Shown: piece by piece, positions 1,943-51,868 of the stretch | Numbering within the stretch: the first letter of the stretch is position 1 | Layout: each line of letters begins with the position of its first letter | DNA from: Chiloscyllium plagiosum | Lineage: Eukaryota | Direction of reading: 5' to 3' | Assembly (NCBI RefSeq): GCF_004010195.1 | Contig: NC_057757.1 | Span: 5,511,657-5,565,706 of the forward strand | DNA length: 54,050 nt | Notes under the pieces: model-generated | The model's database searches: none | What the model was told of the DNA's origin: nothing | What the model saw: the letters and a program-made list of their open reading frames with translations, nothing else | Program-made: the position numbers and the translations under genes

Positions 1943-2236
1943 TTGAAACCTACAGTTTTTAAGATTAGAGTGTTGCTGGAAAAGCACAGCAGGTCAGGCA
2001 GCATCCGAGGAGCGGGAACTACAGGCAGTCCCCTGCGTCCGGGTCTGGAAGTCGATTTGACACACAATGCAGGATATTAGAAAGGAGCCTTGAAACCTAC
2101 AGTTTTTAAGATTAGAGCGGTGCTGGAAAAGCACAACAGGTCAGGCAGCATCCGAGGAGCAGGAACTACAGGCAGTCCCCTGCGTCCAGGTCTGGAAGTC
2201 GATTTGACACACAATGCAGGATATTAGAAAGGAGCC
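1943..2236. repeat. 147-bp tandem duplication (2 copies)
   Basis: gaaacctacagtttttaagattagag...attagaaaggagcc starts at 1945 and again at 2092, with few mismatches. Confidence 0.9.
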
Positions 2237-2264
2237 ATTGGTAAGTACAAGAAATATTTGTAAG

Positions 2265-2645
2265 GTAGGCTGGAAGAACACAGTAAGCCAGGCAGCATCA
2301 GGAGGTGGCGAGATCAACGTTTCGGATATTAACCCCTTTTCAGAACTAGATGTGGGGGTAGGGGGCGCTGATAAAGGGGGCGGGGAGAGCAGCGCAATTG
2401 TGAGGCAGTGATAGGTGGACACAGGTAGTGGGTACAACCTGGTTGTTCGATGGGAGGGATGAATCCGGTTGGTAGCTGAAAGAAGGGTGGGTCGGAGGGA
2501 AGGAAGGGAGTCAGGGGATGGGTGGGATGGTTACTTGAAATTAGAGAACTCAATGTTGAATCCTCTTGGCTGTAGGCTGCCCAGGTGGAAGTTGAGGTAT
2601 TCTTCCTCTGATTTGGTCAGGTTGGCCTTTTCAGGTTTGGCCAAA
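2265..2645 (-). mobile_element. Penelope-like element 3' fragment (GIY-YIG C-terminus plus terminal repeat)
   Basis: Minus strand encodes EEEYLNFHLGSLQPRGFNIEFSNFK*, followed by a degenerate hammerhead core (ctgaaaaggggttaatatccgaaacgtt) at about 2315-2345. Confidence 0.7.
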
Positions 2646-3640: not shown

Positions 3641-3840
3641 CCACAGCAAGGAATGATGGGAACGCAGAGCTGAGGCGGAAGATTCGCAGTGATCGTTTTG
3701 AATGTTACGGCAGCTGTGCGGGCCTTCCGTGTCTAAGCTTGTCCACTCTATCCGATTTTGTTTTCCTTTTCTTTTCTTTGTGTATTTTTTAAACTTTTTA
3801 AACTTAATCGGATGGAAATGGAGCAGGCGGAGTCCAGACC

Positions 3841-4491
3841 GGAGGCTGTCGCGGGGATGCGAGGCCCGGACTGGAGGCCGTCACGGGGATGCGAGGCCGG
3901 GACTGGAGGCCGTTGTGGGGAAGGCAAGGCCCAGACAGGAGGCCGTTGTGGGGAAGGCAAGGCCCAGACTGGAGGCCGTCACATGGGAGGCAAGGCCCAG
4001 ACTGGAGGCCATTGTGGGGAAGGCAAGGCCCGGACTGGGGGCCGTCACGTGGGAGGCAAGGCCCAGACAGGAGGCTGTCACGTGGATGCGAGGCCCGGAC
4101 TGGAGGCCGTTGTGGGGAAGGCGAGGCCCGGACTGGAGGCCGTCACATGGGAGGCAAGGCCCAGACTGGAGGCCATTGTGGGGAAGGCAAGGCCCGGACT
4201 GGGGGCCGTCACGTGGGAGGCAAGGCCCAGACAGGAGGCTGTCACGGGGATGCGAGGCCCGGACTGGAGGCCGTTGTGGGGAAGGCGAGGCCCGGACTGG
4301 AGGCCGTCGCGTGGGAGGCAAGGCCCAGACTGGAGGCCGTCGCATGGGAGGCAAGGCCCAGACAGGAGGCCGTTATGGGGAAGGCAAGGCCCGGACTGGA
4401 GGTCGTCGCATGGGAGGCGAGACCCGGACTGGAGGCCGTTGTGGGGAAGGCGAGGCCCGGACTGGAGACTGTCGAGTGGGAGGCAAGGCCC
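3841..4491. repeat. GC-rich minisatellite, about 20 units of 32/33 bp
   Basis: Units ggaggcc-(variable)-ggcaaggcccagact counted by eye; three recurring unit types. Confidence 0.95.
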
Positions 4492-4524: not shown

Positions 4525-4835
4525 AGCTCGGTGTGGTCCGGAGGCTTGGCCTGGAAGCTTGGCCCGGTGCGGTCTGGACGCTTAGCCCTGTGTGGTCTGG
4601 AGGATCGTCCTTGTGCGGCTCAGAGGCATGGCCCGGTGCAGTCTGGACGCTCGGCCCAGTGCAGTCTGGACGCTCAACCCGGTGCAGTCTGGAGGCTCGG
4701 CCTGGTGTGGCCCAGACACTCGGCCCGGTATGGCCCGGACACTTGGCCCTGTGTGGCCCAGAGGCTCGGCCCGGTGCAGCCTGGATGACCAGCCCGGTGT
4801 GGTCTGGATGTCCAGCCTGATGCAGTCCGGAGGCT
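4525..4835. repeat. Second degenerate minisatellite, 22-23 bp unit
   Basis: Repeated ggcccggtgcagtctggacgctc variants. Confidence 0.85.
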
Positions 4836-9258: not shown

Positions 9259-10044
9259 AACTACAACACTCCTGTTCTTGGAACGTCCACCTGGTGTTTG
9301 CACTTGAGTCTCTGGGACCCACAACCTCCGGCTCGGAGCTCAGTTGAAAGTACAGTTGATCCCAAATCTTTGCTGATACTGCACACTGTAGCGGTAGCAG
9401 GTCCCAGGGACCCTCGGTGCTGCAGAAGGCTCTCTTCCAAAGGGTCACACTTTGTTTACGGGACTGAAGTGTGTGCCAATGGGCTGTTCCACCTCAAAAG
9501 GCATCATAGCCCATTCTTACAGATGCCCATGCTCAGTTGATCTCCAGTGATGACAGGGACGAGTGTGTGTTGCTGGAAAAGCACAGCAAGGCAGGTCACA
9601 TCTGAGGAGCAAGAGAATCGGCATTTCGGTCATGATAATCCGGTGACAGGGAACCAGTACTAGTGGTTAATGGATTTTTTTGGCCAGCCTGGAGTGGGGT
9701 TCTCCGGGGGTTTTAGTGGGGATCCTTGCTCCTCCTTTGATGAGTGTTACTGATAGGTGCACAGGGTGCAATTTGAGTATTTGCTTAAGTTGTAGAGCTT
9801 TTAAGAACTGTGAGGAAGCTGGCACAGAGCTTCAAAAGGACATGGACAGGAGTGGCCAGAAAAGTGGCAAGTGAAATTCAGCTGTTAAGAGACATCAGTT
9901 TGGAAGGTGCTGTTGGAGGAAGTTCAGTGAGTTAATAGTACTCACTGCTGCCATTGAACATCAGAAATGGCGGGAATGGATGGATGAGATGCTGAACGAG
10001 CGGGATGCTTTGCCCTTGATGGTGTTGAGCATCTTGAGTGTTGT

Positions 10045-10725
10045 TGAATCTGTACCAATGCTGCCTGCGCAAGGTCCTGCAAGCCTGCTGGGAAGAAGGA
10101 TGTGGCAACACCAGTGTCCTCAACCAGACCAACATACTCAGCATTGAGGCGAAAGTGAGGACTGCACATGCTGGAGATCATCGTCAAGGTTGTAGTGGTG
10201 CTGGAAAAGCACCATTCATTCGTTCCTGATGAAGGGCTTTTGCCCGAAATGTCGATTCTTCTGCTCCTTGGGTGCTGCCTGACCTGCTGTGATTTTCCAG
10301 CACCAGTCTAACCCATCCTCAGCATTGAGGCAGGGCTCTGACTGCCTTCAGTTGGCTACGAAGGCCTGGGCACGTCGTCCATGTGACCAACCCAAGACTC
10401 CCGGCTTCGAAATGGCAGGCGGGCCCCACTGAAGGAAGCGCTTCAGTGATACACTCAAGGCCTCGCTGGCAAAGTGCGGCATTCCTGCAAGCATCTGGGA
10501 ATCACTGGCCCAAGACCGTCCAAAGTGGTAGAGCAGAATCCAGGAAGGTGTCGAGCACTTGCTGATGGGGCAAAACATGGAAGCCAGGCGGGAACAGCAA
10601 GTGGAGCATGCTGCCACACCCACCCCTACCGTGACCACCATCCGCCCCAAGTATAACAGAGCATGCGGTAGCCACGTTGATCAATACAGCCACCTACAGA
10701 CTCAACTGGAAGGTGGAAGAGTCAT
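10045..10725 (+). mobile_element. RTE-clade LINE 3' fragment, interrupted at about 10151-10305
   Basis: CLRKVLQACW...NTSVLNQTNILSIEA and RKRFSDTLKASLAKCGIPASIWESLAQDRPKW, typical RTE C-terminus. Confidence 0.75.
10151..10305. mobile_element. Short Penelope-derived inverted-repeat insertion with hammerhead-like core
   Basis: gaaagtgaggactgcacatgctggag end; ctgatgaagggcttttgcccgaaatgtc at 10226-10253; ctcagcattgaggc duplicated at 10137 and 10318. Confidence 0.75.
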
Positions 10726-11082: not shown

Positions 11083-12440
11083 TCATACACCTGACTTGTA
11101 TCTTGGAGATAGTTCACAGCTTTTGGGTGTCAGGAAGTGAGTCCCTCTTAACAGTAGACCCATGGCCTGTGTCTCAGTTCTGTAGTACTCAGGAGTGTCA
11201 GTGTGCTGTAGCACTGCACCAACTCTGTTACAGAGCACCACTTCTAAATGGATATGGTCTCGGGTATAGGTTAGTGTTAACCTGTACATCTGAAGGCTGC
11301 TGATTTTGAGAAGTTGTTGAGACTGAAAGCATTAGGTATTCAATCAGGCATGGAACTTGCACGGTTCTTGAGCTTCAGTTCACTGAGCCAGTGGAAAGAT
11401 TATTCTATCCTTGAGTAATCCTTCTTCCTCTGTAATTTGCCTGCACTGATGTGACTCCCTATCTCAGAGTGCAATAGGTAGTCATTGATGGTTGCTGCTT
11501 GCTGTGTGCATAAGGCTGTCGACTGATTTGGGGGAAAGTGTTTGCATGTTTCCCATTTGCTCTCCATCTGGGGAAAAAGCCCTGGCTTCTGTTTGACACC
11601 TCTTCTGCACAGGTCAGGTGATCAATCTCAAAAGTCCTTGGGAACTGTGGGAGTGTCGCCACCCTGGCTTGGTTTGGCCTGTACCAGTGTTAATTCAGCT
11701 CCACACCACCTCAACCCAGTTTGTGTATATCCGCACTCCTTCCCGCTCCTCCAGCCCTGACTATTCCCTGATCAGGTGCACTGACAGCAAAAATAGAATA
11801 TCTGTTCAATATGGTTCCTTTTGTTCTATTTTGAGGGCTGCAGTTTCCAGCGCAGACGTGGGCCATTGGGCCCATCTGCTCTGTGCTGGTGGTTATATTG
11901 CGCCTGAGCTGCCTCCCCTCTTCCCCAACCCTTTCATTTCTCCCTGTCAGCATATCCTCCTTTTCTGCTGCATACATTCATCTGGCTCCTCCCTAGAGGA
12001 ATCTGTGTCGCACCTCAGCAACTGCTCATGATACCACTTTCCACACTTTAATGCCGAGAGCAAGAGTTGGCGGAGGAAATTTGAACAGGTTCGGTGGCAT
12101 CTGTGGAGAGAAGCAGAGTTTGCATTTCTGATTGATGTCCTTCCAGTTTTGCTGTGATGACAGGTCATCAACTTAAAAAGTAGACTCTATTTCTCTGTCT
12201 GGATTGAGATTTTCCAGCAATTTCTAAAAAATCCTATTTCAGACTCCAGGCATCCACGGTATTTTTCTTTTAGAATAGCGTCTGCACTTTGTAAGGTAAT
12301 CTTCTTAGTCCAAATCTCTTCTGGTTACTAAAGCCTTTACAGAGCTGTACAGCAGCAGAATGCCTTTTTGAATTTACTTCCCACATGTTTCCGCTAGCGT
12401 TATTGTATTTAATGTTCATTGCTGCAGTATACGTGTCCTA

Positions 12441-12666
12441 GGAGAAAGTGAGGACCCGCAGATGCTGGAGATCAGAGTTGAGTGTATGGTGCTTGAAAAG
12501 CACAGCAGGTCAGGCAGCATCTGAGGAGCAGGAGAATCAACGTTTCTGGCAAGAGCCCTTCCTCAGAAATATCAGTAATCCTGATGAAGGGTTCTTGCCT
12601 GAGACGTCGATTCTCCTGCTCCTCGGATGCTGCCTGACCTGCTGTGCTTTTCCAGCACCACACTCT
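12441..12666. mobile_element. Palindromic Penelope-derived element
   Basis: Arms about 12481-12567 and 12580-12666 are reverse complements; hammerhead-like cores on both strands. Confidence 0.8.
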
Positions 12667-13029
12667 TGCTCCAGTATGTGTCCTGTTTTGCTAGTTCCTC
12701 TCCTGTGATACTAATAGTTTGGGCTATTGTAAATATAGGGCAGGTCAAGTGAGAACTTCCGTGAGCCCCCTGTTGGGTTTTGTATGATTTTTGTAGATAA
12801 TTTGTCTGCTCCATTTACAAAAAGCAAATCCCAAATTTAACTGGCTTTGACTCCTGAATTCTGGGTAACCTGCCCATTGTCATATACCGCTCTGTACCTA
12901 TACTTCAGGGGCTGGGACTGTCACTGCTGAGTCAGATTGTTATGTTTGTGAGTCCCGTCCTTGATTAATGCTCCATCCCAAATGTGTGACCTCTGACCCA
13001 ACTGGAAGGATGGAGGCAGCAGATACAAG

Positions 13030-13332: not shown

Positions 13333-13734
13333 TCTACCTAGGAAAACCACCCTCCATGTTCCTCTCCAAGCCATTCAGACTTCAAACCAAATCAGCTGTT
13401 TTTTCACTGTCGCTTCGATCAAGATCCAGGAGCTCCCTAACAGCTCTGTGGGTGTTCCTACCTGTTAGATACACCCACAGTCCATGTCTCCTATCACCTA
13501 CATCTTAGTGCTAGTACTGAGGGAGCACCACACTGACGGAGATGGTAATGTTTCATGAAGCTTTAAGCAGACGTTTTATTTGTTCATGACATGTGAGCGG
13601 TGCTGGTTAGACCAGCATTGATTGCTCATTCCTAATAGCCTAGGAGGCACTTAAGAGAGAATCACATTATACATTCGACTTGGCAAGGATGGCAAATTTG
13701 AGATTGTGGTCAGCATGGACTGGTTGGACTGAAG

Positions 13735-13963
13735 GAGGAAGTGAGGACTGCAGATGTTTGAGATCAGAGTCGAGAGTGTGGTGCTGGGAAAGCACAGCAG
13801 GTCAGGCAGCATCCGAGGAGCAGGAAAATCAACATTTCGGGCAGGAGCCCTTCAACGTGAATGAGGCCCTCATTCCTGCTGAAGGGCTCTTGCCTGAAAC
13901 GTCATTTCTCCTGCTCCTCGGATGCTGCCTGATGTACTGTGCTTTTCCAGCATCCCACTCTCG
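13735..13963. mobile_element. Palindromic Penelope-derived element
   Basis: Inverted arms around a central atgaggccctcat; mutated core ctgctgaagggctcttgcctgaaacgtc. Confidence 0.8.
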
Positions 13964-14832
13964 ATGATGGTATAGGAGCCCAAATCCCAAGAATATTAGC
14001 CTGGGGTTCTCAATTGCTCATTCAACGTCATTAGCACAATGCCCCATCGCCCCATTTGCCATCTTGGGTGGGTATGAATGATCCAGGAACATTTTTTCAA
14101 AGAAAGGCAAAGGAGTTCTCTCCAGTATCCACAATCCTTCACAAAGAAGGATTACCCAAAAGCCTGCTATGTGCAAACGGGTGGTTGTATTTCAGAATTG
14201 TTAAAGCACGGAGGTACTTTGGAAAGTGCCAAGGTTGTGAAAGATGCTCTGCAGATGCAAGAGCAAATTACTGCAGATGCTGGTATCTGGACTGAAAACA
14301 AAACATGCTGGAGATCACAGCGGGTCAGGCAGCATCCCTGGAGATAATGCAAGCTAATGTTTCGAGTCTCTCCTGAGGGGATCCTAACCCATATTCCTTT
14401 GCCCCTGAGCCTGGGGACCATGTTGATTTTTGAGTTGTGGCTGCTGAAGATGCGGAGTTCAACATGCTGAAAGAAACTGCTGAATCTTGCAGACGCTCTC
14501 CATACACAGGTTATTGAAAGGACTGTTCTCGTCACTGTGATGTCTCTTATGAGAGTCTGCAGCATGGATATCCTAGCCTCCACCCACTGGGTCTGAAGAG
14601 GTTGCAGTGTGAGAGAGGGTAAAGATTAGCAATGAGAATTTTAAAGTTTTTAGCGGAACTGGAAGCTAATGTAAGTCAGCGAGCACAATGGAGAGTGTGA
14701 AGGTGGGCCAATGTGATTCAGCGCGATTTAGGATGGGGTAGCAGAAAGTTTTGGATAACCTGATGTTTATGGAGCAAGATGCTGAGGATTTGGTGACGTA
14801 GTGGTAATGTCACTAGGCTAGTTAGCTCTACA

Positions 14833-14959
14833 GGAGAAAGTGAGGACTGCAGATGCTGGAGATTCGAGCTGAAAAATGTGTTGCTGGAAAAGCGCAGCAG
14901 GTCAGGCAGCATCCAAGGAGCAGGAGAATCGACGTTTCGGGCATAAGCCCTTCTTCAGG
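14833..14959 (-). mobile_element. Single-arm Penelope-derived element with intact hammerhead core
   Basis: Minus strand reads ctgaagaagggcttatgcccgaaacgtc (14931-14958); inserted in a tRNA-SINE head. Confidence 0.8.
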
Positions 14960-16504
14960 CAGGCTAATGTTCTGGGAATCAGAGTTCAAATCCCACCACT
15001 GTAAAATTTGAATCTAAACAAAGCTGAGGAGATCTGCTAAAGCAGTTTGTGTCAAGTTGCAATCCTCGTTGTAATGCACTCCCTCTGCCCTCGATCTGTA
15101 CTATTGAGCTGAACCTTGAACTGACCCGAGTTAATGAGGCTTGGGGATTTCATAGTTATTTAAAACTTATTTCTGGGAACAATTTGCGGGTTTAATGTTT
15201 AGTCATTGTTTTTAATTAAAAACAGATTTGAGATTGAGTCCAGCTAAAACTAAGCCTGGTGTTCTTTGAGTGAAATTAGTACAAATGACATTTGTTATCT
15301 TTGGAGTTGGCGTGATTTTCCTGTGACAGCTGGTTAAGATTGGGTGCTATGTTCTCCCCTCCTGGTCCACACTTCCATGCTTTTCAGTTGTGATTGGACA
15401 CTTGAATGAAATGTTGACTGCTGTTTGACAAAAGAAGGCCTCACAATGGAGTGTGAAACTGCTCTCGTTGAAGCTCCGTACTTAAGGGAAGTTCAAGAGG
15501 GAATTACCTGATGATTTAAGTACAAATCTCTGGTTATGGGGGAAAGGCAGGAGAGTGACACAGAGTTGTAATGTTGATTCAGAGAGCCAAATGCAGACAA
15601 GGCTGGACTGAACGGCCTCTATCTGCTTCGTAACAGTTCTGTAATTCTCTGAATTTCCAAGAAACATCACTGGAAGAAAGAGATCTCTGGGGTACCCTTG
15701 AGGGTTGCAAGACGTTTCAAAATGCTTTTCTAACCATTGGAGCATAGTATTAAGAGCAGAATTAGATCAGTTGGCCCTTCATGCCAGCAACACCATACAT
15801 TAAGATCATGGAAGAGCTGGTTGTGGTCTCAGCTCTACATTTGTAGCTGCCCCCTATACCACATAACGCCTAAAAATCTATCAGTCTCAACTTTGAATAA
15901 CCTCAAGCGCGGTGAAGAGAATTCCACACTCGATTGACCCTCTGAGAGAAAATAAACTCTCGCCTCTTTCTTCAAAAGGTTTTTTTATTCTTAAACTGCG
16001 TCCCCTAGTTTTAAAGTTGCTCACCTCCACATTATCTACCCCCCCCCGCCTCAGATCTTGCATGTTGCAACCAATAAAATACTGACTGAAACGAACTGTT
16101 GTAGCAGAGGAAACACAGCAGTCAATTTGCACACTGCAGCCTCCCACAAAAAGCAGCGTGCCATTCGCAAGTTGATTTATTTCAGTGATTATTGTTGAGG
16201 GATAAGAATTAGCCAGGTTCGTGTTCTCTGAAAGACTGCCCACTGGGTCTTGTCTGCCACCAGACTGGACCCAGATTCAGTGTCTATTCTGAAAAGAAGC
16301 CCCAGTAATGCAGCAGCATCTCACCCACTGCTTCAGAGTGGGTTGTTTTTGTAGTTTGTGGAGTGGGTTTCAGCCTGCAGCTTTCTGTCTTGGAAGTGAC
16401 AGTGCCGCCCACTGATCCGCAGCTGAGACTGTGTGCAACGATGAGGAATGGATGGATGTTCTGCTAGATATCTCCTCTGACTCTGGAGGCACTTGAGGTC
16501 ACCA

Positions 16505-25340: not shown

Positions 25341-25536
25341 CTTAAAAATGTGTTGCTGGAAAAGCGCAGCAGGTCAGGCAGCATCCAAGGAGAAGGAGAA
25401 TCGGCGTTTCGGAAGAAGGGCTTATGCCCGAAACGTCGATTCTCCTTCTCCTTGGATACTGCCTGACCTGCTGCGCTTTTCCAGCAACACATTTTTAAGC
25501 TCTGATCTCCAGCATCTGCAGTCCTCACTTTCTCCT
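25341..25536. mobile_element. Palindromic Penelope-derived element with 13-bp target-site duplication
   Basis: Near-perfect inverted arms; taaagcttctttg at 25328-25340 and 25537-25549. Confidence 0.85.
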
Positions 25537-25920
25537 TAAAGCTTCTTTGGCCCTGGTAATAAACACACCAAGTCTGCTTTGCTTCAGGAGATCCCAAGCC
25601 ACTTTACAGCCACTGAGGTACTTCAGAAATATTACCACTATTGTAGGAAATGCTGCAGTCAATTTGCACACAGGAATCCCCCACCAACAGCGAAGTGATG
25701 ATGACCAATTCTTTTTCTTTCCCAGTGGTGCTGTTTCAGGGATAAATATTGAATGCATGATGTCCTTTTGCTCTATTTGAACACCCTGGGCCTTGTTACC
25801 CCCACTTGAGAGGGCACAGGGTGGGGCCCCAATTGTGCGTTATTTCTGGAAGACAGTGTGGCATTCCCCTTGTACTGTACTTGGAGAATGAGCCTGGATT
25901 GAGACTCCTCTCCTCAATTT

Positions 25921-27209: not shown

Positions 27210-30200
27210 GTACGTGAATGCTGTCTGTCGTGTGCAATTTAGGAAGGACCAGCACCTACTGTGCCGTCAGGGCCGCCCCAAGCCACGTCTTAGCTAGCAG
27301 ATCACTTTCACTTGGCCACGTTGTGATGCAGGGTAACACCAACAGCATGGGTTCAATTCCCACACTGGCTGAGGGTACTTAGCACAAATGACTCTCCTTC
27401 TCAATCTCTCTCCTCACCTGAGACATGGTGAAACCACCATCAGTCATCTGTCCCATGTGAGAGAGCAGCCCTTTCGCCCAATAACCGTAGCAAGCTCCCC
27501 TCAAAGAGTGATGTGTTTATGACTGGATCATCCAGGTTTTCTCTCTCACTATCGGTTGAGTGATTCCTATAGTTAAGACTCTGAGGGGAACTCCCCTGTT
27601 GTTCTTTAAAACGGTGTGGCTGAGGGATCTTTTACGTCCACCTGAGAGGACAGATGGGGTGTCAGTTTAACACCTGCGCTTGGAGAGTCACTCTGAATTT
27701 TTGAGCTTTTGTCTCTGGAGCAGGCAAAACCTCCTGACTTCAGTGTGTGTCACCCATGACCAACACTTTGTAAGACAGGCAGAGCACCAGAACAGTTCCA
27801 TCCGAAGCTGCAATTTAGCTACAGTCATGGGGAACTACCTCCACGACTTCTCCATTGACACAGCTGAATGCAGCAGTCACTTTCTGAGGCATTCTTCAAG
27901 CTCAAAAGGGCTTCCCTACCTTTATCCTGCTGCTCACCCATCATTAGTTCTCAGTAACCCAATGCCTCCAACGTAAAATTCTCATCCTCTGGTTTAGCCC
28001 TCTCCTGACTCTGTCCCTCCCTACATCTGTAACCCTCTCTGGCTTGGCAATTTTCCCAGCATCCTTTGACAACATCTTCCGAACTCTTGACCCCTACCAA
28101 CCAGGACGACAAGGGCAGCAGATGCATGGGAACAGCATAGTCTACGAGGTCACCCAGCCAAACCGCATACTGTCCGGACGGTATCATCATTACTGGGTCA
28201 AAATCCAGCTTCCTCTCAAACAGCATCACAGCTGTACTTCATCCCATGGATTGCAGTGATTTTGAAAAAAAGGGCGATTAGGGATGGACAGTAAAGGCTG
28301 GTCTAGTCAACAACACCCAATGAAAGTGAAAAGCAACCTCCCCCATTACCAAAATATCCATTGCTTTGAATGTGGTCTCTTGTTTCTACGCCTGCCCCTC
28401 CTTTCACCTCAAGGTCGACAGTGGCCTTCAGCTATTTTGGCACAGTGTTGTAGAATTTCCTTCCTAACTAACCCTGCTGTCTTTCCAATGTGTCTCATTT
28501 CAAATTTAAACATCTGTTCTTTAAGGTGGTTTTTTTTTATATACAAGCAGTTTGGGACAGGAATGCAAGTTATTGCAAGATCCCAGCTTTCGTTGCCAAT
28601 TTGTACTGGTGTCGCCAAGTCCTCAGTACCTCGGGTCTGTGAAAGGGGTTGGACAAAAGATCAGCCAGGTCCCTCCTCCAGACTGTTATCCTTTTGCCTT
28701 CTGATATCTAGCTTATCTGTAGTTTAAAAAGAGTTGCTCAGAATAAGCCCTGACAGAAAGTGACCCTAAACCTATTGAATTTTTTGGGTAAATAGAATTA
28801 GATGATTATGCCCAGTTAGTTCACCCTACTATAGGGAGGATATCAAACCATAGACAGGTTATAAAGGAAGAATATGCAGATAATACCACAGATAGTTATA
28901 TAGTTATGAATTGCAGCTCCAAGAACTAGAGATCTTAGCATAATCATTAAAGTAGAGCAGGTTTTAAAAAATTCATTCAAAGGATCTGGACATCGCTGGC
29001 TAAGCCAGTGTTTATTCCCCATCCCTAATTGCCCTTCTCATCTGCCTTCTCGAGCCAGTGAGGTTCATTTGGCGTAGGTACACCCGCAGTGCTGTCAGGG
29101 AGAGGGAGTTCCACAATTTTGACCCAGCGGCAATGAAGTTTAAAAGATGCATTCAGAGGCATTTTAATAACACAAACTGGAGAGAAGTTACTTCTGTTAC
29201 AAGAAGAGTTAATAACTAGATGATGTAAATTGAATATAATTATTGAAAGGTGAAAGGGAGTGTTATAGAGTCATTATGGCACAAGAGGAGGCCATTTGAG
29301 GGAGATGGTGGTGTAGTAGAAACCTCACTGGACTAGTAATCCAGTGGCCTGAGCTAATAGTCTCAGGACAGGAGTTCAAATCTCACCATCTTCTCCTGCC
29401 ATGGTGCTTTGTGTTTATGTTCCTCAAGCATCCTTTCCAATTTCCTTTTGAAATTGTTCACCAACTATATTTGCACCACCCTAGTGGGCAGCAAGTTCTA
29501 GGTCATTACAGTTCATCGCTTTTTAAAAAAAAAAACCTCTTCCCCTCATTCCCTGGCCTCACTTGCCCGAAATCTTAAATCTATGTGCTCGAGTCCTTGT
29601 ACCATCAGCTAACAGGAAGAGGTTTCTCTTTGTCAACCTTAAGGAAACTTATTATAATCTAATACGTCTCTGTCAGATCACCAAGCCCCCACCCCCCCAA
29701 CCCATTTCTGACATCTTCCTTCATAGCAATAATCTCTCACCTCAGCAACTGATCTAGAGAAAGGTTCACTCAGCTAATTCCTGGGGTGAAGAGTTCTTAT
29801 TTAGAACGAGAGGCACAAAGTTATAGTAGACGAGGGGTTCAAGGGTTTTGCGAGACAGGCAGGAAAGAGGAATGAAGTCCACAGTCAAATTTGCTGTGCT
29901 CTCATTGACTGAATAGCATAAATATAATCCAGAATAATTTCTAAGAAGGAAGTGGAGAAACCGCATTGGGTATGTCTCATTTGCCTTTTCCTAAGAGGTG
30001 GACATTTCCGAGGGATAATAGAAGTACAAGTGGACCAAAATGGCTTTGACCTGTGCTGTCGAGGTCGGTACTTGCATGCACATTGGTTTTGGAAAGTGTA
30101 CACTGTGCAAATCAGGACTGCAGCATTGAAAGCCTCTGTTCAGTGCTGTGCTCACAGTGGGATGCAGAGCTATACATAATTAGGGCCCAGTGCTTCCCAG

Positions 30201-33830: not shown

Positions 33831-33979
33831 GGGAAGCAGTGGCCTAATGGTATTATCACTGGACTATCGATCCAGAGGCCCAGCTAATGTACTGGAGACC
33901 TGGGTTCGAATCCCGCTACAGCAGATGGTGAAATTTGAATTCAGTTCTAAAATAAATCTGGAATTCAGAGTCCGATGAT
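33831..33979 (+). mobile_element. tRNA-derived SINE head running into the gap
   Basis: gtggcctaatggt A box, gggttcgaatccc B box; related copies at about 14790-15015 and 29300-29395. Confidence 0.7.
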
Positions 33980-34479
33980 NNNNNNNNNNNNNNNNNNNNN
34001 NNNNNNNNNNNNNNNNNNNNNNNNNNNNNNNNNNNNNNNNNNNNNNNNNNNNNNNNNNNNNNNNNNNNNNNNNNNNNNNNNNNNNNNNNNNNNNNNNNNN
34101 NNNNNNNNNNNNNNNNNNNNNNNNNNNNNNNNNNNNNNNNNNNNNNNNNNNNNNNNNNNNNNNNNNNNNNNNNNNNNNNNNNNNNNNNNNNNNNNNNNNN
34201 NNNNNNNNNNNNNNNNNNNNNNNNNNNNNNNNNNNNNNNNNNNNNNNNNNNNNNNNNNNNNNNNNNNNNNNNNNNNNNNNNNNNNNNNNNNNNNNNNNNN
34301 NNNNNNNNNNNNNNNNNNNNNNNNNNNNNNNNNNNNNNNNNNNNNNNNNNNNNNNNNNNNNNNNNNNNNNNNNNNNNNNNNNNNNNNNNNNNNNNNNNNN
34401 NNNNNNNNNNNNNNNNNNNNNNNNNNNNNNNNNNNNNNNNNNNNNNNNNNNNNNNNNNNNNNNNNNNNNNNNNNNNNNN
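33980..34479. other. Assembly gap (exactly 500 N)
   Basis: Run of N; the round size suggests a placeholder of unknown length. Confidence 1.
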
Positions 34480-35375: not shown

Positions 35376-35520
35376 GCTGAAAATGTGTTGCTGAAACAGC
35401 GCAGCAGGTCAGGCAGCATCCAGGGGACAGGAGAATCGACGTTTCAGGCATAAGCCCTTCTTCAGGGGTCACGTTTCGGGAATAAGCCCTCCAGAGTGTC
35501 CTGCAGACCTCACTTTCTCC
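35376..35520. mobile_element. Penelope-derived insertion with 15-bp target-site duplication and hammerhead core
   Basis: tctggtcac(g/a)ccata at 35361 and 35521; minus-strand ctgaagaagggcttatgcctgaaacgtc at 35438-35465. Confidence 0.8.
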
Positions 35521-38024
35521 TCTGGTCACACCATAAGAAAGTTGTGATTGGGCTTTGAGAGGGGGCGCGGGGAAGGTGCTGGGCTGGAATTTAGCTGCAT
35601 GGGTTAGTTTGGAGAAATTGCAAGAAGTTGTCCGTGCAGTGAAAGAGGTTGACGGGAGACTTGGTAGAAGTGAACAAGTGGACGAAGAAGAGCTTGTCCC
35701 ATTTGAGCTGACAGTATGTAAACAAGGAGTATGGATTTAAGGTTTGGGCAAGAGCTATAGGACTCTCCCAGCACCTCCCTCCCAGTGGTCTCAAGAGTAT
35801 ACAAGCATCCCCCATAGACAAGTGCCTCTTAATTTTCCAGACCTCAGTTCCCTCACCCTGGTGTCAACGTAAAGTTTATGCTTTAGGGTCCGAGGGTGGG
35901 GGTTACGGGTTCAACCTTCTAACACCAAGACAAGAGGTGTTCCCACCCCCCCACTCCCCCGAGCCACAGCTGATGGCGACACCAAGAAGATATGACCGAG
36001 AAATGATGATCAAATAATGGCAGACTTTGCAGATTGCAGTAGGAAAGGCACTCGGTCTGGGAGCTCCATCGCTCTTGAGGTCCTGCGTGTGCGTGTGTGT
36101 GTGAGCAGGAGATGCTGTAAAACAGTCTTCCAAATGACGTTTAACATGTGAAAGTTACTGTAACCCTGGATGCCAACAAGAACACAATGGCAATAAAGTA
36201 GCTGACTAATATTTATTACGTAAGTTTGTGTGTCAGAGATTGATGTTTGAACATCACACGAATATGACAATCCATGTTTTGAAATTACTTTGTGAAAATA
36301 CAATTATTTTACATTCTCAACCAGACCATTCTTTCATCTGAGCTGCTTCACCTCCTATCTCTTTTGTGGGATGTGGGTGTCACTGGCTGGGCCAGCATTT
36401 ATTGCCTGTCTCTAGTTGCCCTTGAGGAGGAGGAGGTGGTGATGAGCTGCCTGCTTGAGCAACTACAGTCCATGTGCTGTCCACAATGCCATTAGGGAAG
36501 GAATTCCAGGGTTTTCACCCAAGGAAGGAGTAGACGTGCAGGTTGGGAGTCTCTGGGTTTGATATGTTGGAGCCATAGGTCATCCTGCAGCACTAAGTAG
36601 TCAGGGGGCTAGGTTTGAAAGGATGCAGCTTAGGGCTAGGGGTTTCAAGATTCAGGGGTGCGACTGTGAGCAGGAGTCCGTGGTCTAGAGACAGAGGCCA
36701 AGAGTTGAACAGAAATCTGCGTCTTATAGTTGGTGGGAGGGGTAAGGGACGGAACCTCGTGACTTCATTGGCATGTTTATGCCGTCTAAATTGGAGTTGT
36801 GACCCACGTTTTTGGAAGCTGCTGTTGTAAAGAGGCAACTTTTCTCAGAATGCTGAATGTTGTTGCATTTTCATCTTAGAGGGTACAAGGAAATTCAGAG
36901 GAAGTGGCCACAAAGGGCTAACCTTCCCTTATTGCTTAGAACTTGTGGGGATTGGAGCAGCCTATCCACCTTAAGGCAAAACCTTCCTATTGACTTCGGA
37001 CAACTTTTAAACTGGAACCCTGCGACAACAAGAGGATCATGAGTAAATCCAGATCAGTGTCTCTGCCGTTTGTTTTGTGGAGTTTTGCTTTGTGAGCATC
37101 CGATTCCTGTTTCAAACCCTGGTAAACAGCTGTGGTGAGGGCATTGTTTTCCTCTGGGTAAATAACAGCTTTCAACGGCACAAATAACAAACCTGCTCTT
37201 AGGCAGCACTTTTCGTGACCGTGGGTCAGTCCACAGCGTTTTGCGGGCAGGGCATGGGCCAGTATTTTCAAGGGGGTAACTCTCGGCCGAAAACGTGCAT
37301 TCGAACAGTGAGCAGATAAATTGCTAAAAGCATCATGTCCTGAGAATTCTGCAGACCCCTCAGGTCCCCCTAGCTGGAGGCAGATCCTTGGCTCATCAGC
37401 AAATGGTGCTTCACCCTTTCTTCAGCAGTGTGTTTGCCAATGGTTTGTCTCCCGCTCTGGGGTGAGGAGGCAGGTCACGGAGACAGGTCCCAGGTCTATC
37501 CGAGCCAGACTGGGGATTGTTGGTGTAAAACAGAACTGCACGCGAGGCCGCTGAGCTAACCAATCATCCAGGGAGTAGGCGTTTACAACCGAAATGTAAG
37601 CTTTTGAGCTGACTACCTAACTGTGCGTCAGTTTTGGGTGACATTGTCACATGATTGTAAATGTGTGCAGTGCAATCTTGCATCTCTGTCTCAGGCACGC
37701 ACATTCGAGATTTCATCGAAAGCAGTAGCCAACTCCAGAATTTTAGCAAACCTAAATCAGCAGATACGCTTTTCCCAGATTTAAAGTGTCCCTTGTGATG
37801 CTTACATTTTTGCGCACAGACTGTATACAAAGTTGGCAGTTTTGTACAGGACAGCTGGCTATATATACAAATATGTACGTATTCTGTGGGTAAATGTACA
37901 GTTGTATAGGGAGCGCTCATTAACAGAAAACTCTGTTGATACCAGTAAGGGAGGACTGCAGATGCTGGAGATCAGAGTCGAGAGTGAAGCCTTGCTACGT
38001 GGGCACGTAGCTTGGAAAAATGTC

Positions 38025-38225
38025 CGGATTAAAAGCAGAGTACAGTGGCTGCTGGAAATCTGAAACAAACCCAGTGAATGCTGGAGAAACTCAGCAGCGG
38101 TAAGAGAGAGAAACCGAGTTAACGTTTCAAGTTCGCGTGACTCCTCTTCAGTTCTGAAGAAACGTTACCACTGTTCCTCTCTCCATAAATGCTGTCAGAC
38201 CTGCTGAGTTTCTTTGTGTTTGTTT
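38025..38225. mobile_element. Palindromic Penelope-derived element, second subfamily
   Basis: gaaactcagcag / ctgctgagtttc arms; minus-strand ctgaagaggagtcacgcgaacttgaaacgtt at 38121-38151. Confidence 0.7.
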
Positions 38226-38327
38226 ACTGCTGTGGCTCAGTTGCAAAGTTCAAAGGCAATGGGTTAGATTTTTTTAATATCGTACCAGTCTGGTGCTGAA
38301 TGCTTCTGAACCCTGAAGCGATTGTTG

Positions 38328-40189: not shown

Positions 40190-40960
40190 TTTAAAAAGAC
40201 CCTGAGCTTCCAGTTACCTGCTACTTCAACACCACCCTTGTTCCCTGGCCAACATCTGTCTCTGGCTTGCTGCAGTGCTCCAGCAAAGCTCAGCAGAAGC
40301 TGCAAGAACAACATCTCATTTTCTGCTTGAGGACCTTGCAGTCTTCTGGACTTGATATCAAGTTTAATAACTTCAGGAGTTGAGCTTCCCCATGTCTTTT
40401 TCCCAACCCCTCTCACACCAGGTCTTTTCTTTAATCACATAGTCTGCCATTACAACACAATCCATTGTTAGCCACTAACAGTCCCCATTAATAGATACTT
40501 AGCCTGCTGAGCCTGATCATTATTCACTTCTTTTTAAGATTAAATTAGATCCACTACAGTGTGGAAACAGGCCCTTCGACCCAACAAGTCCACACTGACC
40601 CTCCAAAGAGTAACCAACTCAGACTCATTCCCCTACTCTGTACCCCTGACTAATGTACCCAATACTATGGGGCAATTTAGCTTTGCCAATTCACCTGACC
40701 AACTTTGGTCTGTCCAACAGTTCTTCTCTTTCTTTGGGCTCCATCCTCACCTATTTGGTCCCTACCCCTCTCCCCCTACCCTATCTTCTGCCTATAAAGT
40801 GACATTTTCCTAGCTACCATCAGTTCTAGGGAAGGCTCACTCAACTCGAAAGGTTAGCCCTGATTTCTCTCCACAGATGCTGCCAGACCTGCTGAGCTCC
40901 TCCAGCAATTTCTGTTTTTGTTTCTGATTTCCATCATCCGCTGTCCTTTTGGTTTTTAAC
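40190..40960 (+). mobile_element. Penelope-like element 3' end (GIY-YIG C-terminus plus terminal repeat), split by an HE1 fragment at about 40540-40700
   Basis: LPVTCYFN...GLLQCSSKAQQKLQEQHLIFCLRTLQSSGLDIKFNNFR; degenerate hammerhead at about 40825-40856. Confidence 0.7.
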
Positions 40961-41384
40961 TGCTTTCGCACTCCTGGTTCTGAAGATGAGTCATAATCGA
41001 ACTCAAAACGTCGACTGTTTTATTTTTCATCTGTCCGCAAGTGCTACTAGACCCATTGAGTTAGAACCGTTAAACAGTTCTGCAGAACAATGCGTGGGTC
41101 TGCTGTATATTTAGTCTTATTCGAACTACAAAAGCCCTCTTGGCCTGCCTTATCAATTTTATCCTCCAGTTGTAACTGGTGACATCGGAATCTCATAATT
41201 GAGCAGCAACTACTTTATTTGCATGAATTTGCATGGTCATCAAAGCCCCACCTCTATTTTTCATTGAATTAAACCTGCAAGTATTTACAGAGCAAAGTTA
41301 GCATCCAATAGTTTTATATCTGGATTTAAAGAGACATGTTAAATTGAGACGGAGTGGAAATGAAGCTGGTTGGACTGCTTGGAA

Positions 41385-41543
41385 CTGAAAATGTGTTGCC
41401 AGAAAAGCGCAGCAGGTCAGGCAGCATCCAAGGAGCAGGAGAATCGTCGATTCTCCTGCTCCTTGGATGCTGCCTGACTTGCGCTTTTCCAGCAACACAT
41501 TTTCAGCTCTGATCTCCAGCACCTGCAGTCCTCACTTTCTCCC
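41385..41543. mobile_element. Palindromic Penelope-derived element with centre deleted, 11-bp target-site duplication
   Basis: Arms meet at gagaatcgtcgattctc; actgcttggaa at 41374 and 41547. Confidence 0.85.
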
Positions 41544-44842: not shown

Positions 44843-45560
44843 TTGGCTCAGTGGTTAGCACTGCTGCCTCACAGCGGGGTCGATTCCTGCCTCGGCTGAC
44901 TGTCTGTGTGGAGTTTCCATAGTATTCCCTTATCTCTGTGGGTTTCCTCTGGGTGCTCCGGTTTCCTCCACAATCCAAAGATGTGTAGGTTAGGGTGGAC
45001 TGGCCAGGGGTAATTACCCATAGTGCCCAGGGATGTACTGGTTAGGGTGGATTGGCCAGGGGAAATTACCCATAGAGCCCAGGGATGTGCAGGTTAGGGT
45101 GGATTGGCTGTGCTAAATTACCCATCGTGCCCAGGGATGTGCAGGTTAGGGTGGATTGGCCATGCTAAATTACCCATAGTGCCCAGGGATATGCAGGTTG
45201 GGGTCGATTGGCCGTGCTAAATTACCCATAGTGCCCAGGGATATGCAGGTTGGGGTGGATTGGCCGTGCTAAATTACCCATATGTTCAGGGATGTGCAGG
45301 TTAGGGTGGATTGGTTGTGCTAAATTGCCCCATAGTGTTCAGGGTTTTGTAGGTTAGGGTGGATTGGCCGTGCTAAATTGTCCCATAGTTCCCAGGGATG
45401 TGCAGGTTAGGGTGGATTGGCCATGCTAAATTGCCCCATAGTGTTCAGGGATGTGTAGGTTAGGTGCATTCGTCAGGGGTAAATACAGGGTAGGGGAATG
45501 GGTCTCGTTGAGTTACTCTTTGGAGTGTTGGTGTGGACTTTTTGCGCTGAAGGCTGGATG
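44843..45560 (+). mobile_element. HE1-type SINE with 9 internal tandem copies of a 52-bp unit (44981-45450)
   Basis: atgtgcaggttagggtggattggccatgctaaattacccatagtgcccaggg repeated. Confidence 0.92.
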
Positions 45561-51409: not shown

Positions 51410-51868
51410 AGAATCCCTACAGTGTGGAAGCAGGCCATTCAGCCCATCGAGTCCACACCGACTCTCTGAAGAGCATCCCAGCCAGACCCACCGTCCTGTC
51501 CTATTCCTGTACCCCTGCACTTCCCATGGCTAATCCACCACACCCACCCAGACCCACCGTCCTGTCCTATCCCTGTACCCCTGCACTTCCCATGGCTAAT
51601 CCACCACACCCACCCAGACCCACCATCCTGTCCTATCCCTGTATCCCTGCACTTCCCATGGCTAATCCACCACACCTGCATATCCCTGGACACTATGGGG
51701 CAATTTAGCATAGCCAATCCACCCTAACCTCTACATCTCTACATCTTTTGGCTGTGGGAGGAAACTGGTGCACCCGCAGGAAACCACACAGACATGGTAA
51801 GAATGTGCAAGCTCCACGCAGACAGTCGTTGGAGGGTGGAGTCGAATCCAGCTCCCTGGTGCTATGTG
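51410..51868 (-). mobile_element. HE1-type SINE with 3 internal copies of a 66-bp unit
   Basis: cagacccaccgtcctgtcctat... at 51483, 51549 and 51615. Confidence 0.9.

Follow-up and report, generated by a model that had tools for sequence, protein, structure and literature searches.

The window, by which we mean the whole stretch of 54,050 nucleotides analysed here, contains the vigilin (HDLBP) gene on its plus strand, with coding exons from 25008 to 51201 (Pfam KH_Vigilin, E 1e-24), in agreement with the vigilin locus named in an earlier note on this DNA. Forty-nine residues of one vigilin exon are 100% identical to Chiloscyllium plagiosum and Hemiscyllium ocellatum, and 92-98% identical to other cartilaginous fishes, which identifies the host as a bamboo/epaulette-type shark. 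Exons for vigilin residues ~148-284 were not found in the window between 32498 and 46700, an interval with flanking exons present and with an N gap at 33980-34479. The C. plagiosum model P0001 is without the same part of vigilin, and the missing residues probably reflect an assembly gap.

Ten kilobases upstream of the vigilin start codon, and antisense to the gene, lies a minimal type-I hammerhead core (14931..14958, minus strand). Direct reading of the minus strand gives CTGAAGA-A-GGGC-TTAT-GCCC-GAAA-CGTC, which matches the letters reported earlier: C3 to A9, an extra A between 9 and 10.1, a 4-bp stem II, GAAA, a loop-less palindromic helix III (ACGU) and GUC, with one of the first four pairs of stem I kept. 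The conserved core CUGANGA / GAAA / NUH is present in the minimal hammerheads of the window, by direct reading and by descriptor, as are the extra nucleotide between 9 and 10.1 and the G10.1-C11.1 pair; in an alignment across subfamilies this last column is G-C in seven rows, G-U in four and something else in two. Helix III lacks a loop, being the palindrome ACGU in the focal copy and in six of the eight folded copies, and AUGU in one. The whole focal unit (14832..14959, minus strand) is a single long arm, made up of the core and 99 nt past the cut site. Its final ~31-38 nt (14832..14867) form a tail that only long arms have and over which genome-wide depth is lower. The unit has no target duplication and is inserted in another repeat, a tRNA-like sequence that it splits (14790-14831 and 14960-15015) and that recurs in related form at 29308-29388 and 33836-33945. 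At the junction, 9 other bases stand in place of about 12 of this host repeat. A contig of a second species enters the focal element by 21 letters, a length under our bridging rule, and the presence of the insertion in that species is suggestive only.

As the earlier note had proposed, the window was searched for minimal type-I hammerheads with a descriptor of 28 letters that tolerates at most one mismatch. Eight sites matched against 0.14 expected by chance, a number that none of 100 shuffles reached: 2316-2343 (-), 10226-10253 (+), 12539-12566 (-), 12581-12608 (+), 13876-13903 (+), 14931-14958 (-), 25410-25437 (+) and 35438-35465 (-). An Rfam search of the window at gathering thresholds returned no hammerhead, and scans for the core pattern gave no matches in metagenome contigs and none in viral contigs. 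A profile built from 13 window copies produced 28 matches at E<=1, seeds included, of which 22 fall below 1e-4, compared with a single match (E 0.44) in the reversed window. In total, the window holds 11 main-family loci, one of them a tandem duplicate, and six older relatives, which occupy 2265 bases or 4.3%. All entries in the earlier list of copies are real, including the damaged ones near 40825 and 40980, but the list was incomplete, having missed 12539-12566, 13826-13853, 9554-9634, 25341-25412, 41385-41542, 14265-14378, 12086-12263, 37944-37996 and 1966-2164. Its description of dispersed cores was correct as far as it went, but overlooked that six of the 11 main-family loci are head-to-head inverted pairs (10151, 12440, 13733, 25341, 35376 and 41385), as are two of the six older loci.

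The pairs differ in what they retain. At 10151..10313, an internally deleted long arm on the minus strand is joined to a short plus-strand arm with an intact core (10226-10253) and a stem I of the family type, and a target duplication (17/18) lies at 10133 and 10314. The head-to-head pair at 12440..12669 combines a long minus-strand arm (core 12539-12566, with a G10.1-A mismatch) with a short plus-strand arm (core 12581-12608), has a target duplication with a 2-nt indel, and folds as one long hairpin. The 12581 core is present as reported and carries A14G, but the AAUC read as its stem I lies at an inversion junction, the family consensus being AUUC. In the head-to-head pair at 13733..13964 both arms start at the identical base, 8 nt upstream of C3, with a junction palindrome near 13860-13875; no target duplication was found in its flanks. 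The head-to-head pair at 25341..25537 (short arm minus, long arm plus) lies in the intron just downstream of the first coding exon of vigilin and has a perfect 13-bp target duplication. A target duplication of 14/15 surrounds 35376..35521, which consists of a short minus-strand arm, another core piece that is decayed, and a plus-strand arm reduced to the tail; the short arm has the intact core reported at 35438-35465, but with G10.1-U11.1 instead of G-C. The second core-region copy, at 35467-35500 in the centre of this insertion, suggests a template jump. The sixth pair, 41385..41542, is head to head, lacks a core, is joined at the cut-site palindrome, and has a duplication of 13/14. The other main-family loci, besides the focal arm, are a single short arm with a decayed core at 9560..9641 (minus; duplication 10/11, 9 exact), two core-less pieces at 1966..2164 (minus), and a tail-side fragment at 37944..37996 (minus). 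The core-less pieces lie within a 147-bp tandem duplication (1943-2236, 96% match).

Among the older subfamilies, the head-to-head pair at 38030..38226 contains the core reported at 38121-38151 (-), with a different stem II (U-A/A-U) and GUU, as claimed. Terminal repeats with a decayed hammerhead (40821..40951, plus) and with a G8A core (2264..2347, minus) each lie downstream of an ORF remnant, the former also downstream of a pyrimidine-rich spacer. A core with G12A and a 5-bp stem I (40973..41040, plus) was recognised by eye and was missed by the profile search, which did detect an arm with a decayed core at 14265..14378 (minus) and a highly decayed probable inverted pair at 12086..12263 (profile E 3e-5 and 0.13). 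In these older subfamilies an AG immediately precedes the 5´ strand of stem I (40812-40825, 2344-2352 and 38158-38170), and at 40812-40825 it follows a pyrimidine-rich tract (40740-40820). This AG resembles the intron end at helix I described for D. virilis Penelope (PMC4209133).

The ends of the arms fall into two main classes. Seven of eight far-end arms (one being the reference) stop at +98/+99 after the cut site and the eighth at +96. Short arms end at +63 to +68 in four cases by alignment, and at about +61/+62 in two more by eye; three arms diverge near +50 into a third variant. The tail accordingly measured is 31-36 nt in four pairs or arms (alignment) and ~37-38 nt in two (by eye), and this 31-38 nt difference between arms corresponds in size to the Penelope tail. 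Target duplications of 9-18 bp, with 10-17 matching bases, were found at six of 12 tested loci, against a background in which 2.0% of 1422 random pairs have at least 10 matching bases; six loci, the focal one included, are without. In the portions of the literature covered, endonuclease-bearing (EN+) Penelope-like elements likewise have head-to-head repeats, of which one end bears a tail of 30-40 bp, together with short target duplications, junction palindromes and solo pLTRs (Arkhipova, 2013, PMC3846280; Craig, 2021, PMC8557442). The shark insertions differ in being nearly all terminal repeat alone (85-230 bp), and in duplications of 9-18 bp rather than the 8-10 bp target site duplications of those papers. 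We thus consider it likely that this hammerhead, at the head of a ~135-nt repeat found as single arms or as head-to-head pairs with duplications, marks dead-on-arrival end-pieces (pseudo-LTRs) of endonuclease-bearing Penelope-like retrotransposons.

How the second arm arises is less certain. The same Penelope-like origin would be compatible with a first cDNA that primes itself by folding back at the hammerhead palindromes, a route we consider possible but rather doubtful. Pair junctions do centre on short palindromes (13860-13875, 41433-41450 and 25408-25420), both arms of any pair belong to the same subfamily, and self-priming has been proposed for these elements (PMC3846280). The two arms of 25341..25537 also have in common a private variant that is absent from 10 other arms, though no such variant is shared in three other pairs, and the shared variant fits fold-back copying as well as twin priming. 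However, fold-back by itself leaves the stop of the second arm at +61 to +68 unexplained, a single short-end arm with a duplication exists (9560-9641), and the protein of the Anolis Poseidon element PAc cut and extended both strands in vitro, from two internal start sites (Frangieh, 2024, PMC11167929).

The protein evidence for a Penelope-like origin comes from the older relatives. A GIY-YIG-type (Penelope-like) ORF is represented at 40198..40383 (plus) by its final ~60 codons, and this 61-residue remnant has 27 relatives at E<=0.001. GIY-YIG matches were found in two of the 19 relatives scanned, below the Pfam cut-off (E 0.002 and 0.008), one of which also matches RVT_1; several of the 19 are chimeric gene models. 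A second ORF end remnant (2531..2620, minus) is identical at 16 of 26 positions to the C-terminus of P0126, one of the relatives with a sub-threshold GIY-YIG match. Both remnants adjoin older relatives (2264-2347 and 40821-40951) across a pyrimidine-rich spacer, and both of these repeats show similarity to the focal arm (E 8e-8 and 3.5e-6). Neither a reverse transcriptase nor a full ORF for the main family was found in the window, direct Pfam scans of both remnants gave no match, and neither the ORF remnant nor residues 250-379 of P0141 retrieved any in word-index protein searches. For these reasons we place the main weight on architecture and treat the protein link as indirect. The Penelope-like origin proposed in the earlier note is nevertheless well supported by the inverted pairs, the tail, the target duplications and the ORF remnants taken together. 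P0141, another relative of the ORF remnant, has a CxxC stretch ahead of its GIY-YIG part, which hints that the ORF-remnant lineage may be Neptune rather than Poseidon.

The claim of a very dense family is borne out genome-wide. The ~135-nt repeat was found on 122,935 contigs of one DNA run and 104,149 of another, from two species, with depth concentrated on 14824-14977, and 13,910 and 13,151 contigs leave the family into other sequence. This comparison used one query stretch against four runs, at 82% likeness; its summed depth ratios, 7e6 and 1.3e6, are inconsistent with each other and should not be taken as copy numbers. For a host genome of a few Gb, the density of the window extrapolates to a rough estimate of 10^5-10^6 insertions. 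At the 5´ side, loose ends behind 14959 have seven letters in common and then no consensus (1685, 1571 and 634 records in three runs), from which it follows that most copies begin ~8 nt upstream of C3. A weak consensus just beyond the long-arm end at 14832, the same in both DNA runs, could reflect a preference for certain targets or, alternatively, a small share of longer elements. Within the motif, the listed variation falls at N7, in loop II and at CpG sites (G12 included), N7 being the sole listed non-CpG core position that varies family-wide. The CpG changes at G12, C11.1, 15.2, 16.2 and C17 reach 9-18% of DNA depth among the variants listed.

The sharp 5´ edge bears on whether the main family constitutes a non-autonomous element in its own right, with a ~135-nt RNA that has its own fixed 5´ end and is amplified in trans by a Penelope-like protein. 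The common edge, with no shared upstream continuation in the 1685 and 1571 contigs, would be expected of such an RNA; continuation into an ORF is seen at none of the 11 main-family loci and at two of the six older ones; and non-autonomous derivatives of Penelope-like elements are on record (PMC8557442; bioRxiv 2026.07.22.740005). It does weigh against our preferred explanation that the ORF remnants belong to older relatives and that the sharp 5´ edge fits a short non-autonomous RNA too. However, neither a promoter nor a discrete transcript was seen for the main family in the RNA reads described below, 96% of which run on, and a full-length transcript on which copying starts internally, close to its 5´ end, would, as can be inferred from PMC11167929, yield the same short product without a separate master. 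We regard a true non-autonomous element as a minority possibility. The units would suit terminal pieces of autonomous Penelope-like elements just as well as the separate family of non-autonomous retroelements posited in the earlier note.

Another class of short, non-coding, hammerhead-bearing elements akin to the pLTRs of Penelope-like elements is the non-LTR retrozymes (Cervera and De la Pena, 2020, PMC7229834; Li, 2026, bioRxiv 2026.07.22.740005), of which the axolotl has up to 120,000 motifs according to the same two sources. If the shark unit were a retrozyme, tandem monomers would self-cleave into circular RNAs that are then reinserted. Head-to-tail joints (14959->14832) do exist, in 54 and 40 contigs of the two DNA runs and in two of 3557 RNA reads, and CCT is common to the 5´ flank and the 3´ end. 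These joints, however, amount to ~0.1% of local depth and have mixed spacers. Retrozymes are head-to-tail tandem arrays that yield circular RNA, whereas the shark family is dispersed as single or inverted copies: no tandem array of the unit was found in the window, and six of 11 loci are inverted instead. Stem I is also weak and helix III has no loop. We thus think a retrozyme very unlikely. A circular-permutation model was likewise rated low.

The ribozyme has left different signatures within the main family and across subfamilies. Over ten main-family rows, conservation is 94/104 (90%) in the core, 62/71 in stem II and 418/457 (92%) in the downstream DNA. Contrary to the expectation of the earlier note, the core is thus not conserved above its neutral flanks, and the copies therefore decay neutrally. 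Across subfamilies, 94% of stem II cells and 62% of stem I cells are paired, and two-sided changes occur in 12 stem II cells, at two of the four pairs, against 5.8+-1.8 in shuffles, a control that ignores relatedness, which inflates the test. The claim that stem II changes between subfamilies while pairing is kept consequently stands, for comparisons between subfamilies only. Since the copies show no excess conservation but stem II covaries across subfamilies, selection on the motif acted on the source elements. Stem I is the weaker helix: the main-family consensus does pair at three of four positions (C-G, U-A and A-U), but with an internal U·U, and helix I is reduced to one pair of four in the focal copy and reaches 5 bp in the older copy at 40980. 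The 99 nt downstream fold no better than shuffles (z -0.74); across subfamilies, two helices in this segment pair in 86-90% of cells.

Folding suggests further impediments to cleavage. Stem I has a probability of 0.00 in all eight folded copies. Four of seven paired loci are predicted to form a single long hairpin (z -16 to -23), and the stem II probability is 0.00 for the cores at 12539-12566, 12581-12608 and 13876, so that several cores are predicted to be hidden by an antisense arm. In four of four copies the hammerhead-type dimer is 14-26 kcal/mol less favourable than the free fold, these energies being nearest-neighbour estimates without tertiary contacts or protein. The caution of the earlier note regarding single copies was well placed: considering weak stem I, CpG decay and masking by the antisense arm, most scattered copies are probably inactive.

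These results also bear on the host gene. The vigilin introns hold several copies, all those from 25341 onward being intronic, and the intact core at 10226-10253 (+) may lie in a 5´ UTR intron, such that working ribozymes could in principle regulate the vigilin pre-mRNA. However, none of five sense-strand arms within the vigilin coding span has an intact core (two of six antisense arms do, but the numbers are too small for a test), the focal copy lies antisense to the gene, and the stem I probabilities and dimer energies given above speak against cleavage. We found no evidence for ribozyme control of vigilin and give the idea almost no credence.

RNA reads from one poly(A) single-cell run document that uncleaved family RNA clearly exists. 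The 3557 reads on the family (275 per million records) come from both strands, assigned by the usual first-mate rule, and 96% of them continue into unlike sequence; none were found on the unique flanks of the focal copy, and a second RNA run gave no reads on the family. There is no pile-up of read starts or ends in this run, at the cut site or elsewhere, which is a weak test given that a poly(A) single-cell library would under-sample cleaved 5´-OH ends. Depth drops across the cut site by 8.4% on the hammerhead strand and 5.8% on the antisense strand; the slightly steeper fall on the former (p 0.02, with reads that are not independent) speaks to some degree against inactive copies. The same reads offer a weak lead toward A-to-I editing of the family hairpins. 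A>G plus T>C changes make up 21 of 49 sites listed in RNA versus 7 of 31 and 7 of 30 in DNA (p 0.09), and T>C at 14863, 14870 and 14902 (A>G on the hammerhead strand) reaches 15-22% in one RNA read class versus 1-6% in DNA. These three sites are strand-biased as editing predicts, but editing stays a lead because non-editing changes at 14892 and 14939 are equally biased; locus bias would fit as well. By comparison, editing is established for lizard Penelope, which is heavily edited, and for frog Harbinger, whose self-folding, ~200-bp palindromic repeats resemble the shark pairs as ADAR substrates (Porath, 2017, PMC5625713).

Taking Penelope-like end-pieces as the preferred reading, the following scheme would account for the arms. 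By analogy with PAc (PMC11167929), the element protein would make a staggered cut in the target. Two internal RNA sites, spaced ~35 nt, would then serve as alternative starts of reverse transcription, which could take place at one DNA end or at both and would proceed through the uncleaved hammerhead to stop at the 5´ edge of the RNA. Two such cDNAs could be joined head to head. The ribozyme itself was selected in the source elements, where it probably worked as a switch assisted by dimer formation or by protein; the scattered copies decay neutrally and in most cases probably cannot cut. PAc offers parallels in its two internal start sites, which define the tail, in its use of uncleaved RNA as template, and in the lack of RNA reads that end at the cut site. 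A difference is that the PAc ORF starts in stem II, and none starts there in the focal shark copy.

These hammerheads belong to a known class: earlier publications cover the minimal hammerheads of Penelope terminal repeats as well as the inverted pairs and the tail (PMC4209133; PMC3846280; PMC11167929). Minimal hammerheads were described in the pLTRs of metazoan Penelope-like elements by Cervera and De la Pena (2014, PMC4209133), and those of the shark resemble them in the conserved core, the extra base between 9 and 10.1, G10.1-C11.1, and the palindromic 15.2-16.2 without loop 3. Further likenesses are the several consensus families per genome, the predominance of single motifs from truncated elements, and opposite-strand pairs 100-700 bp apart. 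The shark main family departs from that description in helix I, with three of four pairs and a U·U compared with 4-5 bp (2 bp in D. virilis), and in a copy number far above the 4,000 of coelacanth and 9,000 of Xenopus. No shark is named in the parts of that paper covered. Our search of published papers found none on the hammerheads of this shark family; the recent retrozyme survey sampled one chondrichthyan (bioRxiv 2026.07.22.740005), and an intronic expansion of Penelope-like elements has been reported in the whale shark (10.1101/443036).

What the shark adds is scale. More than 10^5 sequence variants allow start sites, 5´ edges and junctions to be counted, and such counts could tell twin priming from fold-back copying, a question about the Penelope cycle that the papers cited, in the parts covered, describe as unresolved. 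The abundance also means that shark introns carry many ready-made RNA hairpins. More speculatively, and with the expectation that this is rather improbable in full, the hundreds of thousands of strong-stop-like cDNAs might constitute a genome-scale fossil record of Penelope replication, preserving two internal starts, an uncleaved hammerhead and the 5´ edge of the RNA. The hammerhead would then act less as a nuclease than as an RNP or end-defining structure, and the paired products would silence their own ribozyme and supply ~90-bp duplexes that could be a major substrate for A-to-I editing in sharks.

Other repeats in the window are of a different kind. GC-rich minisatellites of 33 and 23 bp and tandem arrays of 52 and 66 bp occur at 3834-4491, 4551-4825, 44980-45484 and 51477-51676, and the 52- and 66-bp arrays derive from another common repeat of ~300 bp.
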